DNA from: a virus
Lineage: Duplodnaviria > Caudoviricetes
IMG/VR virus record: IMGVR_UViG_3300020172_002590
Coordinates: 17,458-81,457 of that record
Strand: one strand, 5' to 3'
Length of the DNA stretch: 64,000 nucleotides
Below are positions 6,800 through 17,604 of the stretch, piece after piece. Below the pieces are notes generated by a model that was given only the letters and a program-made list of their open reading frames with translations, was not told the DNA's origin and did not search any database. Every line of letters begins with the position of its first letter. The stretch's first letter is position 1. Made by a program: the position numbers and the translations under genes.

Positions 6800-7042
6800 C
6801 TACTTATCTTTCTTTGTCAAAGCCAATGTTGCAAAGGTTGTTGAAAGTTGAGCGTGAATCTGAGCTTCAACAAAAGTAAAAGGCGTAGTGCTATAAAAAA
6901 CACCTTTCTCTGGCTTTGTTACAAGCATTAACTGACTCGCACATTCAGCGTGAAAAATTGACAATGCTTCATAATTTTCTGTTTCTAAATAATGATCTTG
7001 TATTGCAATGTCATCTTCTGACCAACTCATATTTGTTCTCAT
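6800..7042 (-). CDS. Hypothetical protein
   Basis: ORF in the array. Confidence 0.7.
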   Translation of the reverse strand: MRTNMSWSEDDIAIQDHYLETENYEALSIFHAECASQLMLVTKPEKGVFYSTTPFTFVEAQIHAQLSTTFATLALTKKDK

Positions 7043-7245
7043 TCGTATTCCTCATCTCTAATTGAAGAATGATAGCCTTCTCTTGCTATCATTGTTGTTA
7101 TATGTACTTCGCTATTACCTAAGATATTGTTTTTGTCGTTGCCAAGCAATGCTTCGTAAACAACACTTATTGCCTCATTGTAATCTTCTGCTTCAACAAA
7201 ATTTGTTGTAAAAGCTGTTACTGTATATATTTTCTTTTCTGACAC
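7039..7245 (-). CDS. Small protein with 'VEA..EA' motif
   Basis: GTG start after GGAGG; FVEAEDYNEA. Confidence 0.75.
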   Translation of the reverse strand: MSEKKIYTVTAFTTNFVEAEDYNEAISVVYEALLGNDKNNILGNSEVHITTMIAREGYHSSIRDEEYE

Positions 7246-7253
7246 TTTGCCTC

Positions 7254-7679
7254 CTAGAATTGTCTTGTGTCAAAGTTGTCTTTTGTATGAAATGTTAATG
7301 TAAAACATCCATTATCTTCATCTGGTAGTTGAACTTCATCAATATTTAACCACCAATCTTTGTCCTTATCGCTGACAACAATTTGAATATCATCATCAAC
7401 ATTTTTCAAAATTTCTTTCAATTGTTTTACTGTAATTGTTGGTTGAAAATTGGTTGTTTGTAAAAGGAACTTTTCTGATAGGTTATTCATCCAATTAGCG
7501 TACTCATAAATCCATTCGTCAAAAGAACCAGTGAAAGGATAATCAACAGATGTTTCACCATTATCCTCAGCTGATAGTTGCTCCCAAGCCATAGTTAGTT
7601 TCATAAGCGGAGTCCAAAGACTTCCCGCAGCATCTATGAATTCTTTTCTTGCTATGTAATTATTATATGTTTCTTTCAT
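7254..7679 (-). CDS. Hypothetical protein
   Basis: AAGGAG RBS; C-terminal TVKQLKEILKNVDDD module. Confidence 0.8.
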   Translation of the reverse strand: MKETYNNYIARKEFIDAAGSLWTPLMKLTMAWEQLSAEDNGETSVDYPFTGSFDEWIYEYANWMNNLSEKFLLQTTNFQPTITVKQLKEILKNVDDDIQIVVSDKDKDWWLNIDEVQLPDEDNGCFTLTFHTKDNFDTRQF

Positions 7680-7704
7680 GTTTGTCTCCTTTGTTTGAGA
7701 ATAT

Positions 7705-7760
7705 AAAAAGAGACTAGCTACCGTTAGTAGTATCCAATTTCTAACGGTAACTAGTCTCTT
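7705..7760 (-). terminator. Long hairpin terminator 3' of tRNA-Arg
   Basis: AAGAGACTAGTTACCGTTAG...CTAACGGTAGCTAGTCTCTTTTT on the minus strand. Confidence 0.75.
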
Positions 7761-7762
7761 AG

Positions 7763-7835
7763 CGCTTTCAGTAAGATTCGAACTTACAACCTACTGATTA
7801 GAAGTCAGTTGCTCTATCCATTGAGCTATGAAAGC
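7763..7835 (-). tRNA. tRNA-Arg (anticodon UCU)
   Basis: Cloverleaf GCTTTCA/TGAAAGC, anticodon arm ACTGA-CTTCTAA-TCAGT, T-loop TTCGAAT; CCA not encoded. Confidence 0.95.
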
Positions 7836-7840
7836 ATAAA

Positions 7841-7976
7841 GGTATATAAGTTATTTTTACCCGCATATATACCAGATACGGGGTTATTAGGTAATAACTT
7901 AACCTATTTTAATATAATGATTATTTTTCGGCGCATTTATATTAGAAACGCTTTTCTGTGGTAATAACCTAACCAC
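7841..7976 (-). ncRNA. Two tandem ~67-nt structured RNA units (predicted double pseudoknot)
   Basis: Aligned repeats 7841-7906 and 7910-7976 with compensatory changes in three helices. Confidence 0.6.
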
Positions 7977-7981
7977 TATAT

Positions 7982-8503
7982 TCACACTTTGAAACCCCAG
8001 TTACCAAATCCACCACCATAATACAGAAGATATTTAGCAACTTTAATATTACATCTTGATTTTAGGAGAACTGTCATATCTCCCCAACGCTTTCCACAAA
8101 CTACTTGTGTTACCGTTGTCCAAGATGAATTGATTTGCAATAAACCAGAGTCATAAGAACTAATTGCATTACACTTCTTGTAAATATTAGCTGGGGCTAA
8201 TATACAATTCTTATGTGACTTACCTTTCTTATAATTCCAACCAATTGCTTTAGGTTGACACCTAGATTCTCTCCACATAATGTATGAAAAGATTTGTACA
8301 GGCAATCCTTCATCTTTAATCATTTGATGATATTTAGGACACCTATATTTTTGATCTTTTGGTATTTGTCTTTTTACCAAAGATATTTGTTGTTTTAATT
8401 CCTGTTCACTTATTTGTTCAGCCTGAACAGAATGGGCAGCAATACTGCTACCTAAGCTGATTATCAAAGTAATTGATAATAATCGTTTTATAAACCTAGA
8501 CAT
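7982..8503 (-). CDS. Secreted lytic transglycosylase (SLT/lysozyme-like fold)
   Basis: Signal peptide; WRESRC catalytic Glu motif; DSGLLQIN motif. Confidence 0.85.
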   Translation of the reverse strand: MSRFIKRLLSITLIISLGSSIAAHSVQAEQISEQELKQQISLVKRQIPKDQKYRCPKYHQMIKDEGLPVQIFSYIMWRESRCQPKAIGWNYKKGKSHKNCILAPANIYKKCNAISSYDSGLLQINSSWTTVTQVVCGKRWGDMTVLLKSRCNIKVAKYLLYYGGGFGNWGFKV

Positions 8504-8686
8504 ATTTCGCTCCTTTAGTTGTTGGGTTTACGATTCTGTTATACACAGATAACGCATTAGCATAAGCTAAGGTTGCGAAACGAGGTCATAGCATATTTAT
8601 CTACAATTCAATGCTCACTCGCTTCACTTACATTTATTCATAGGCATCACCTTTCCTTTAAAAAACAGATAAATACAATTATATCA
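8504..8686 (-). promoter_or_regulatory. Promoter (TGnTATAAT) and structured 5' leader with uORF and kink-turn
   Basis: TGATATAAT at about 8678-8686; uORF MNKCK at 8641-8624; hairpin 8575-8627 with k-turn geometry. Confidence 0.55.
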
Positions 8687-8701
8687 CTTAATGCAATATA
8701 G

Positions 8702-8775
8702 TGCCGAATATAGGAATTGAACCTATTCAAAAAACTTATAAGGTTTTCTCCGTCAAACCGTTCGGACCATTCGGC
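8702..8775 (-). tRNA. tRNA-Ile (anticodon UAU), atypical D-arm
   Basis: GCCGAAT/ATTCGGC acceptor, TCCG/CGGA D-stem, AAAAC-CTTATAA-GTTTT anticodon arm, ATAGG-TTCAATT-CCTAT T-arm. Confidence 0.85.
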
Positions 8776-8790
8776 TAATTAATCTACATA

Positions 8791-9168
8791 TTAATCATCT
8801 TCATAATTTTCAAACATTTCGTCAATCTCTTTCATTGCTTCTAACAATTGACTTAATACTTCTCTTGCTTTATGAACATTTAGCAATGGATTATCAAGAA
8901 GTTCTTCTCTAGCAATAGCATAATCTATAGCATAGTCTGAAAGCAATTTATCAACAGGAGTATTAGTTGCGTGTGAAACTAATCTCATAATAGTTGCCAT
9001 ATGATACATTAATCCATAGATCAAACCCGGCATAAACATATCATCAATATTCTTTTCATCATCTTTGAATGACTCCAATATTTTTTCCATTGAATTCATA
9101 TCTTCTGATATGTAAGAAGAAAATATCTGCAATGCGTAATCAGTATATAGATCATTTTTATCAGCCAT
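8791..9168 (-). CDS. Hypothetical acidic helical protein
   Basis: 125 aa ORF. Confidence 0.8.
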   Translation of the reverse strand: MADKNDLYTDYALQIFSSYISEDMNSMEKILESFKDDEKNIDDMFMPGLIYGLMYHMATIMRLVSHATNTPVDKLLSDYAIDYAIAREELLDNPLLNVHKAREVLSQLLEAMKEIDEMFENYEDD

Positions 9169-9236
9169 CTCTAACCCCTAACAAAATAATTGTCATAAAA
9201 GTTATAACAATAGCCATACTGAAAATACGAAACATT

Positions 9237-9803
9237 TTATGCTTGTTCCTTTTCGGCAGCTAATTGCTTTCTGAATGCTTCCATATATATCTTTGATGCA
9301 ATGTCTGCTTCTGTTGGCTTACCAAAATCATACACTTCTGCTGGCTCCCAAGTGATTTTTAAATCTCCATGCCATCTTGACATTTTATCTTCAAAAAATA
9401 CAAATCGGAAATAGTCATCATTCTCTTCACCTTTGAAGGAAATATAATCTCCATCTCTTGTATAACCAGCAAAGCATTGCAAGAAATATTCTTCATTGCC
9501 GACCTTAGTGTAATAAGAAAGATTGATCAAATTACCATCTTCATCGAGTTCCCATTCAAAACCCAACTGTTGCAAAATATCAAACATATTCTTACAAGTT
9601 TCTGGATAGTTATATTCCATCCAAGAGAACCACTTATTTCTTGGATATCTTTCACCTTCAACATTGTCATTATTTGAACCATAAGATCCACCACGCTTCA
9701 ATTCGTGAAAATCATTTAGTTCACACATTTTTTTATAAATAGCATCAAAATGCTTTTTATCTACAAAGATGTTAGCTTCTTCTATGCTTACATAGTATCC
9801 CAT
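9237..9803 (-). CDS. Hypothetical phage protein
   Basis: 188 aa ORF; MGY start and YISFKGE motif seen in actinophage early proteins. Confidence 0.8.
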   Translation of the reverse strand: MGYYVSIEEANIFVDKKHFDAIYKKMCELNDFHELKRGGSYGSNNDNVEGERYPRNKWFSWMEYNYPETCKNMFDILQQLGFEWELDEDGNLINLSYYTKVGNEEYFLQCFAGYTRDGDYISFKGEENDDYFRFVFFEDKMSRWHGDLKITWEPAEVYDFGKPTEADIASKIYMEAFRKQLAAEKEQA

Positions 9804-16914: not shown

Positions 16915-17604
16915 TTAATCCTCAAATAAATTTAATTGATTAGGGTTATATTGTCTTGTAGGAATTGGCTCAAGATTATTACGTTCAATAAACTCAGTCC
17001 AACCCCCAATGTTTTCTTTGTTCCAATATTTAATGTTATAGACAGCCATTAAAATATCTTCATCTTCTGGATAAAGTCCAGCATCTGGAGATAGCTCCAC
17101 ATTCATATTCATCGCTAATTCGTTATAGATAAAATCAGCCCAATTAGAATCAGAAGTATCAATTAAATCTAAAAGATAACTTGGTAGTTCCTTTATGGAT
17201 TCAATTACACTTTCATATTCTTTGTTAAAGTAATCACCTTCATCAGCAACTGAATACTCCATCAATCTTTCTTGCCATTCCATAGCAGCAATAAAAGCAG
17301 GACTAATATTGCTTTCTGTAACGTCACTTTCTGATAAAAGAATACGACAAACTAAACGATCAATTGAACCTACAACCCAATGCTTATATGTTTCAATTCT
17401 AAAATCACCAGGAAATCTTTCCATTAAATCTTTACTGATAACTTCAAAGTTTGACTTTTCAAGAATACTTTGAGCAGTATCATCAATTCCAGAAAAACCC
17501 CAAGTTTTAAACATATCTTCAGACCCCCAATAACCAAAATCTTCTGGTTTTTTCAAAGCCATAGTCGCAAGTTCTTCAATGCTGTAATGCGAAATATCAA
17601 TCAT
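16915..17604 (-). CDS. Hypothetical acidic phage protein
   Basis: LEKSNF...HWVVG...EYSVADE motifs. Confidence 0.8.
   Translation of the reverse strand: MIDISHYSIEELATMALKKPEDFGYWGSEDMFKTWGFSGIDDTAQSILEKSNFEVISKDLMERFPGDFRIETYKHWVVGSIDRLVCRILLSESDVTESNISPAFIAAMEWQERLMEYSVADEGDYFNKEYESVIESIKELPSYLLDLIDTSDSNWADFIYNELAMNMNVELSPDAGLYPEDEDILMAVYNIKYWNKENIGGWTEFIERNNLEPIPTRQYNPNQLNLFED

Follow-up and report, generated by a model that had tools for sequence, protein, structure and literature searches.

What lies between the stop codon of a phage gene and the tRNA that follows it? Phage tRNA clusters are usually annotated as tRNAs separated by junk spacers. One such spacer occupies the minus strand at positions 7841 to 7976 of a 64,000-nt stretch of Caudoviricetes DNA (hereafter, the window; positions 17,458 to 81,457 of IMG/VR virus record IMGVR_UViG_3300020172_002590), between an ORF and a tRNA-Arg gene. 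An initial annotation, made from the sequence alone, had described there a tandem pair of double-pseudoknot RNA units, A and B, the latter ending 5 nt before the tRNA, and had proposed that they represent an undescribed structured RNA. The sequence is as described, and the spacer very probably encodes a transcribed, conserved RNA module whose core is a small H-type pseudoknot, in which the loop of hairpin 2 (C-U-NNN-AUAU) pairs with a tail (AUAU-NNN-A), and to which the lineage of the window adds a 5′ hairpin. This specific, covariation-backed knotted fold recurs in the spacers of phage tRNA clusters and is absent from the standard RNA catalogue.

Read from 7976 to 7841, the two head-to-tail units are each ~68 nt long and consist of two hairpins and a 3′ tail, the first part of which pairs with loop 1 and the second with loop 2 (Table 1). 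All four helices are present in unit A and in unit B, in agreement with the annotated complementarity of each tail to both loops in succession. When the tails were shuffled 20,000 times per unit, ordered complementarity to both loops of at least the observed length arose five times for unit B and never for unit A. Aligned over 76 columns, the units are identical at 49 positions (~66% identity), and the differences between them are compensatory, as had been stated: loop GG faces tail CC in unit B, loop AA faces tail UU in unit A, and in the loop-2/tail helix of unit A both partners of three pairs differ from those of unit B. Unit A does contain hairpin 2, in a register that needs correction. 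The pairing GCGUUU/AAAUGC drawn originally gives way to GCGUUU/AUGCGC with a 9-nt loop, the register homologous to that of unit B. DNA contigs from runs X3 and X6, near-identical to the window, contain both units with a single change, U7947→G, which converts the lone U·U mismatch of the corrected register to G-U and would break the GCGUUU/AAAUGC register.

The nested-only folding energy of the region is ordinary (z = −1.13 sense, −0.40 antisense); the signal is therefore carried by covariation and the pseudoknot pairings rather than by the minimum free energy (MFE). A nested alternative, in which the MFE structure pairs the 5′ strand of hairpin 1 with tail ACC(U), is not kept in the relatives L160 or L120 and was rejected. 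A motif and covariance-model (CM) search of the 64-kb window returned no further site resembling units A and B.

About 22 distinct relatives were accepted in IMG/VR phage contigs, in phages that span 38–240 kb. Homology to the ORF upstream of the element led to L119 and L120, each with a single unit between ORF stop and tRNA-Arg. A motif scan of IMG/VR contributed four more: L160 (with two near-identical contigs), L173, whose copy is upstream of tRNA-Trp, and L183, whose copy is upstream of an atypical CUA-anticodon tRNA. A scan anchored on the 5′ half of the tRNA-Arg gene alone, and thus blind to the sequence of the element, yielded 16 distinct tRNA-Arg(UCU) upstream regions. The core fold is present in 13 of these, with a spacer of 3–5 nt to the tRNA (the spacer script left unit B unparsed, and its 5-nt spacer was read directly from the sequence). 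These regions supplied new loop/tail combinations, CUGACAUAU with AUAUGUCA, CUAACAUAU with AUAUGUUA, CUAGCAUAU and CUGGCAUAU each with AUAUGCUA, and CUGAGUAU with UACUCA or GUGCUCA, as well as the loop-1/tail pairs UGAUUGUU/AACAAUCA, UGAUUGAU/AUCAAUCA, and UGGUUAAA/UUUAACCA.

Covariation among these homologues bears out the fold. In the alignment of the first seven sequences (A4; all four helices, 27 pairs), 87.2% of cells pair, compared with 72.7% after shuffling; both partners vary in 13 of the 27 pairs, and none of the measures is attained in any of 500 shuffles. The larger alignment (A7) comprises 14 distinct sequences, three helices, 22 pairs, and 308 cells. Left out of it were L406 and L408 (misaligned), three leaders of a different kind, the duplicates L401, L177, L207, L410, and L409, and all members found later by the CUGACAUAU-variant scan described below; hairpin 1 was omitted from the counts because MAFFT sets it in two registers. 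In A7, 89.9% of cells pair, versus 73.8 ± 1.4% in shuffled alignments, and 16 of the 22 pairs change on both sides (loop 1/tail, 5 of 7; stem 2, 7 of 7; loop 2/tail, 4 of 8). Four of five measures were reached in 0 of 500 shuffles and the fifth (further pair types) in one. Because the sequences share kinship, this shuffle control overstates significance. The stronger argument comes from the number of independent pair types and from slid controls, in which moving the partners by 1–3 columns lowers pairing to 27–50%. RNAalifold, which does not consider pseudoknots and was blind to the proposed drawing, chooses the loop-2/tail helix as the consensus.

Of the 14 rows, 11 form hairpin 1 in either of its two registers (nine with five pairs, L120 and L398 with four), and the outer pairs of this hairpin vary among U-A, G-C, A-U, and G-U. 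G-U pairs are common throughout (six of the 14 sequences, for instance, have U-G at columns 53/63), so that the fold can form only on the tRNA strand, a strand preference noted at the outset for the window.

Table 1. Coordinates of the two units and of their transcript neighbors in the window.
Feature	Positions	Strand	Description
Upstream ORF	7982..8503	-	173 aa, hydrophobic signal-like N-terminal segment
Unit A (distal)	7910..7976	-	CM R1 63.2 bits, E 1.5e-12; order GUGGU-UAGGUUAUU-ACCAC, AGAAAA, GCGUUU-CUAAUAUAA-AUGCGC, CGAAA, AAUAAUC, A, UUAUAUUA
Unit A hairpin 1	7958..7976	-	GUGGU (7976-7972), loop UAGGUUAUU (7971-7963), ACCAC (7962-7958)
Unit A hairpin 2, corrected register	7931..7951	-	GCGUUU (7951-7946), loop CUAAUAUAA (7945-7937), AUGCGC (7936-7931)
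Unit A tail part 1	7919..7925	-	AAUAAUC; partner, hairpin 1 loop
Unit A tail part 2	7910..7917	-	UUAUAUUA; partner, hairpin 2 loop
Unit B (tRNA-proximal)	7841..7906	-	CM R1 86.8 bits, E 2.9e-18; order UAGGU-UAAGUUAUU-ACCUA, AUAAC, CCCGUAU-CUGGUAUAU-AUGCGGG, UAAA, AAUAACUU, AUAUACC, then UUUAU and tRNA
Unit B hairpin 1	7888..7906	-	UAGGU (7906-7902), loop UAAGUUAUU (7901-7893), ACCUA (7892-7888)
Unit B hairpin 2	7860..7882	-	CCCGUAU (7882-7876), loop CUGGUAUAU (7875-7867), AUGCGGG (7866-7860)
Unit B tail part 1	7848..7855	-	AAUAACUU; partner, hairpin 1 loop
Unit B tail part 2	7841..7847	-	AUAUACC; partner, GGUAUAU in hairpin 2 loop
Spacer	7836..7840	-	UUUAU; single-stranded, unit B to tRNA +1; expected RNase P site
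tRNA-Arg(UCU)	7762..7835	-	ARAGORN; Rfam tRNA 76.5 bits; CCA not encoded
Intrinsic terminator	7700..7760	-	20-bp hairpin and U tract, directly 3′ of tRNA-Arg

Comparison of the relatives separates a common core from lineage-specific additions. The core has a stem of 4–10 bp, one or two bases (C, U) that cross the deep groove, and a second helix of 7–8 bp, in which three variable pairs precede a nearly invariant AUAU/AUAU stacked on the stem; the linker is 4–18 nt long and usually A-rich. In the lineages of the window, L396, and L398, the loop of the added 5′ hairpin pairs with the A-rich linker to give a second, interleaved pseudoknot, and in that of the window a single 15-nt tail zips two hairpin loops successively. 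From this connectivity, we expect two coaxial stacks lying side by side. The first pseudoknot is missing from L404, L406, L408, and the L419 type, and L173, L183, and L420 have only a short 5′ hairpin. L120 (3550-3575) contains an additional hairpin, UGACA-CGGCAAA-UGUCA, between hairpins 1 and 2, so the junction tolerates insertions. Upstream of the core, GGAG...CUCC of L406 (3433-3480) is replaced by GGGG...CCCC in L408 (9749-9796), a change that suggests, at the level of sequence, a further covarying contact in that lineage. Upstream of the first of two copies in L421 (3655-3800, minus strand) is a hairpin, GUGG-AGCUAUAG-CCAC, with a loop complementary to a downstream AUAGC; this ORF leader could hold a chain of small pseudoknots.

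The last scan employed the CUGACAUAU variant with no tRNA requirement. It found members before tRNA-Tyr on a 239-kb contig (L416) and between tRNA-Met and tRNA-Gly (L429), two more tRNA-Arg members (L422 and L431), and seven stretches that are chance matches with 0–1 stem pairs. Members of L419, L424, and L432 follow a tRNA and directly precede a tRNA-like structure whose leader and trailer form a closing stem of 17 bp. In L420 and L425, no tRNA accompanies the copy, which has a terminator of its own and a promoter-like site upstream, and L421 carries two separate ORF-ORF intergenic copies in one phage, the second of which was the sole useful yield of an over-permissive generic structural scan. 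Across the two scans without a tRNA requirement, 13 of 16 distinct accepted members lie no more than 8 nt from a tRNA or tRNA-like gene. Three other loci (L148, L171, and L181), with 4–6 stem-2-type pairs and no tRNA, are ambiguous and may be chance matches or unrecognized members.

The tandem arrangement is confined to the phage lineage of the window; every other relative examined has a single unit per locus. A model search for extra copies likewise gave one strong match per record (two, in tandem, in the window), with three further weak matches in G004 (E 0.1–0.6); model R2, for its part, misses the L406/L408 type.

The element occupies untranslated spacers, with its 3′ end 0–8 nt before the tRNA in tRNA-linked members. 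The downstream tRNAs are those for Arg, Trp, Tyr, and Gly and the CUA-anticodon tRNA, and the spacers measure 8 nt for tRNA-Trp and the CUA-anticodon tRNA, 7 nt for tRNA-Tyr, and 5 nt for tRNA-Gly. At the other end, the element starts 1–10 nt past a stop codon (the window, L119, L120, L398, L404, L392, and the second L421 copy) or past a tRNA 3′ end. In L173, a sigma-70-like promoter, TTGACA-17-TATATT, is located ~180 nt upstream, which places the element inside the transcript there.

Two of the downstream structures are unusual in themselves. In L392 (1583-1653, equivalent to ~898-968 of L183), an 80-kb phage contig, the tRNA after the element has an anticodon loop CUCUAAA and a noncanonical T loop. 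Its anticodon reads amber, it scores 30.4 bits against the Rfam tRNA model with no ARAGORN call, and, as judged from its sequence, it may be a suppressor tRNA. In L419 (5330-5440; also L424 and L432), the 17-bp stem UCUUUCUAAAACAUGCU/AGCAUGUUUUAGAAAGA encloses ~70 nt with a tRNA-like T arm; this structure, inside a large phage tRNA cluster, likewise receives no ARAGORN call. The remaining three of the 16 tRNA-Arg regions (L397/L409, L403, and L407) carry a leader of another kind, 76 nt upstream of tRNA-Arg and between two tRNAs, with a long-range helix CCUAUAU...AUAUAGG. Here, an upstream UUGAGU and a downstream UGAGU compete for one ACUCAG. This leader may represent a relative that has been rearranged, or else an element with alternative pairings.

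Searches in other directions added little. A metagenome scan with one loop variant gave 91 stretches, the real ones being only copies of L173, L120, and L183. Most of the others are unrelated near-perfect palindromic repeats (...CAUCUGGUAUAUGUCAC...GUGACAUAUACCAGAUG...) within longer inverted repeats on many short metagenome contigs (L226-L316; e.g., L226 452-492), which look like a miniature inverted-repeat mobile element. Among 185,579 prokaryote species genomes, the GGUAUAU variant matched 51 stretches, none before a tRNA and none a convincing member (only L367 exceeded three stem-2 pairs); with the scan limited to that variant, absence from cells is not established. A search for close DNA relatives among GenBank phages matched only the tRNAs. 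The downstream ORF P0002 found nothing as the sole search anchor, and its alignment returned only relatives already known. A scan of IMG/VR with the loop-1 motif GGTTARGTTATTACC gave chance matches only, the single two-match locus (L068) having no tRNA, and the lineage-1 pattern without loop 2 added no members.

The window is part of an 81-kb virus record of 78% estimated completeness. It is AT-rich (~32-39% GC), carries nearly all its genes on the minus strand, and encodes a DnaB-like helicase, a tail-fiber protein, and a C5 methylase; near-identical DNA is present in freshwater and lake metagenomes from several studies. The stop codon of the upstream ORF (TGA, 7984-7982) is 5 nt before unit A. 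Since a TAG follows two codons past this TGA, we rejected a role for the element as a stimulator of stop-codon readthrough or frameshifting. The 173-aa product has no Pfam match, and its homologues precede the element in L119, L120, L398, and L404. The ORF before the element in L160 (5946-6656) is different and encodes a secreted protein of 236 aa with a motif that we take to resemble an Rpf/transglycosylase-like domain. A terminator follows the tRNA directly in the window and in eight relatives (L119, L120, L160, L396, L398, L399, L400, and L404). A second tRNA of the window, tRNA-Ile with anticodon UAU (8701-8775, minus strand), lies ~15 nt past an ORF stop with no structured leader, and relatives also hold tRNA-Leu(UAA) and tRNA-Lys(UUU) among small ORFs. 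Matches to RNA contigs of run X18 are limited to tRNA-like words and part of the upstream ORF and have no bearing on expression.

The element matches no catalogued RNA. At gathering thresholds, cmscan against Rfam 15 reports only the two tRNAs in the window, in line with the earlier failure to match the element to pistol, twister, or hepatitis delta virus (HDV)/theta ribozymes or to a riboswitch. At E ≤ 10, nothing in 7500-9000 overlaps 7836-7981, and at E ≤ 1 the relatives L391, L392, L402, and L405 give tRNAs only. We found no description of the motif in Rfam or in the literature consulted; PMC10690425, a 2023 catalogue that lists 8,495 candidate structured RNAs drawn from IMG/VR, may contain it. 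We rate the element as a new RNA family, among the small pseudoknotted cis-elements of phage transcripts. Thus, the claim of an undescribed structured RNA is upheld by the lack of an Rfam match and by covariation, and of the functions suggested for it, the context best fits a nuclease-resistant or processing-linked element.

What might such a fold do? Our tentative preference is for a compact end-cap, a barrier to decay at an RNA 3′ end made by RNase P. Cleavage by RNase P at tRNA +1 is established for bacterial pre-tRNAs. If ORF, element, tRNA, and terminator were transcribed as a single RNA, such cleavage would part the upstream RNA from the terminator hairpin that comes immediately after the tRNA. 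The new 3′ end would consist of the pseudoknot and a 3–8-nt overhang, the overhang too short and the fold too compact for a 3′→5′ exonuclease to engage, so that the fold would act as a barrier protecting the upstream RNA. As a side benefit, the module might also insulate the folding of the adjacent tRNA, and in ORF-ORF and stand-alone contexts it could serve as an intercistronic barrier. What we infer is that the four are transcribed jointly, that RNase P cuts at the tRNA, and that the fold resists nucleases. PMC5714204 reports that RNase R requires a 3′ overhang to enter structured RNA and that an unwinding-deficient mutant leaves ~3 nt. This need for an overhang, together with the logic of MALAT1 as described in PMC8457004, leads us to favor the decay-barrier role. 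If correct, it would also make the module a very small (45–70 nt), portable RNA-stabilizing part.

Several observations weigh against an end-cap. Other tRNAs of the same phages (Leu, Lys, and Ile of L119) follow ORFs with no such fold, so mRNA-tRNA junctions there have no general need of it. Some members are flanked by tRNAs on both sides (L429, L408, and the L419 type), where a 3′ barrier would obstruct trimming of the tRNA that comes first, and others have no tRNA at all (L420, with its own terminator, and the two ORF-ORF copies of L421). Exonucleases would be stopped by a simple hairpin as well. C-U, which is invariant, and AUAU/AUAU, which is nearly so, point to factor recognition or to a specific tertiary fold that an end-cap does not explain. 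Finally, cleavage by RNase P might be slowed by a bulky fold situated only 3–5 nt away.

These varied contexts, the fold-free sibling tRNAs, and the invariant bases favor a factor-binding RNA. The module may possibly, with somewhat less probability, be a self-contained, stable small RNA of 45-75 nt that is freed by tRNA-processing enzymes and acts in trans or binds a host or phage protein. RNase P would cut on its 3′ side, tRNA 3′-end processing or RNase E would cut on its 5′ side, and tandem copies would raise the dose. Consistent with this, entire inter-tRNA spacers of L429 and L408 are taken up by the module, L420 has a free-standing copy flanked by a promoter-like site and a terminator, L421 has two ORF-ORF copies, and the window has a tandem pair. 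Invariance of C-U and AUAU amid covariation of all other paired positions would be expected of a recognition surface, and T4 rnaC and rnaD are stable RNAs from a tRNA-Arg transcript. On the other hand, the conserved bases are base-paired and therefore offer little exposed surface, the flanking ORFs differ between lineages, and no neighboring protein gene is conserved.

It is unlikely, though well worth weighing, that the module gates or insulates maturation of the tRNA itself, by tuning access of RNase P or preventing misfolding, and so sets the timing or amount of one tRNA (the AGA-reading tRNA-Arg, tRNA-Trp, or the possible amber suppressor), perhaps in response to a ligand or protein. Its occurrence once per phage record (twice, in tandem, here) before one particular tRNA while neighboring tRNAs lack it, the very short and narrow range of spacing to tRNA +1, and the member before the atypical CUA-anticodon tRNA would all suit such a gate. 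The tRNA-free members (L420 and L421) would not, and we see neither a conserved, mutually exclusive alternative fold nor a match to a riboswitch family. Bolder versions are a long shot: a switch or catalytic fold gating one chosen phage tRNA, or a portable protein-capturing knot mass-produced via host tRNA-processing enzymes. Factor binding or tRNA gating, if true, would add a new layer of control over phage-encoded tRNAs, suppressor-like ones included, and a tRNA-gating switch would time the phage translation program. In either case, the small size of the module makes it directly accessible to biochemistry and structure determination.

A ribozyme was among the functions first suggested. That the element is a new one, cleaving itself to trim the leader of the tRNA or to set itself free, is very unlikely, and the context lends this no positive support. 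The double-pseudoknot architecture, the few invariant bases, and the position beside phage tRNAs do recall the HDV-like theta ribozymes described in PMC10879173. However, no Rfam ribozyme model matches even at E ≤ 10, the strand order (a b a′ c d c′ b′ d′) is unlike those of HDV and pistol, the invariant bases lie mostly within Watson-Crick helices rather than in junctions, and RNase P already supplies the tRNA 5′ end.

We consider a signal at the level of DNA, such as a tRNA promoter or operator, or a chance inverted repeat in AT-rich DNA, to be highly improbable. Loop CTGACA or TGGTATAT and tail TAATAT or CAATAT do resemble −35, extended −10, and −10 elements, with the tail 8–9 bp before tRNA +1. 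However, a consensus scan of 7000-9500 finds no sigma-70-like site within 7836-7981, the −35-like and −10-like sequences are spaced by 20–21 bp (L396, L419) rather than the required 16–18 bp, no second copy of the motif turns up in the rest of the window, and the consensus promoter of L173 sits outside the element. Loop and tail bases change together (GG/CC, AA/UU, GAC/GUC, and AGC/GCU), which is not required of a promoter, and the G-U pairs would be C·A on the opposite strand; the tail shuffles oppose chance. Least credible of all is a pseudoknot repeat like a type III antitoxin, or a decoy for one, as also first suggested: the units are tandem and pseudoknot-forming, but there are two copies only, ~66% identical and single at the other loci examined, they are followed by a tRNA and terminator rather than a toxin gene (Pfam assigns no family to P0002, the next ORF), and no ToxN/AbiQ-type endoribonuclease gene was seen beside members in the loci examined.

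Comparison with known systems places the element more closely. Type III antitoxins (ToxI) are arrays of near-identical, ~36-nt pseudoknot repeats before a ToxN-type toxin gene; the present element shares with them short tandem repeats that fold into pseudoknots and differs in having one or two diverged units per locus with a tRNA downstream. With the pistol ribozyme, the element has in common the pairing of a hairpin loop with a strand farther downstream and an A-rich junction after it, whereas the helix order is different, and cmscan gives no pistol match at E ≤ 10. Theta ribozymes lie on the 3′ side of the tRNA, have the nested double-pseudoknot topology of HDV (P1-P1.1-P2-P3-P4), and cleave at their own 5′ end. 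The phage element is on the tRNA 5′ side, has a different strand order, and has no Rfam HDV match; what it has in common with them is that a pseudoknotted RNA stands immediately beside phage tRNA genes, which for theta ribozymes include suppressor tRNAs (PMC10879173).

Phage T4 offers two nearer parallels. Its gene 32 leader is also a small H-type pseudoknot in a phage noncoding leader, one that PMC10690425 notes as absent from Rfam, and the L421 copies likewise precede ORFs. The T4 pseudoknot is the binding site of the phage single-stranded DNA-binding protein (SSB) upstream of its own gene, whereas the contexts here are tRNAs and other ORFs; model R2 does not match the gene 32 leader (L433 2355-2430, minus strand), and none of the contexts observed here involves SSB. 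T4 rnaC and rnaD (species 1 and 2) are small noncoding RNAs of unassigned function, co-transcribed with a phage tRNA-Arg and released by tRNA processing. They differ in lying downstream of tRNA-Arg, according to the T4 annotation, and in their length of 119-139 nt, and R2 finds no match in their region (L411).

The closest likeness in logic is to MALAT1 and MEN-beta. As described in PMC8457004, RNase P acts at a tRNA-like structure to generate the MALAT1 3′ end, which a neighboring triple helix protects. Theirs are eukaryotic long noncoding RNAs with a U·A-U triple helix (ENE) and the tRNA-like mascRNA (PMC8457004), whereas here a phage RNA with Watson-Crick pseudoknots precedes a real tRNA, and protection is only predicted. 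The phage element has no U-rich internal loop of the ENE kind, and its covarying contacts are Watson-Crick or G-U pairs between loop and tail. The shared design is a compact fold directly upstream of an RNase P substrate (5 nt in the window and 3–8 nt in relatives), which in MALAT1 yields a capped, nonterminator 3′ end (PMC8457004), and the phage element, too, sequesters an A-rich 3′ segment in upstream loops. An end-cap coupled to RNase P, if that is what these pseudoknots are, would be the bacterial-virus counterpart of the MALAT1 strategy.

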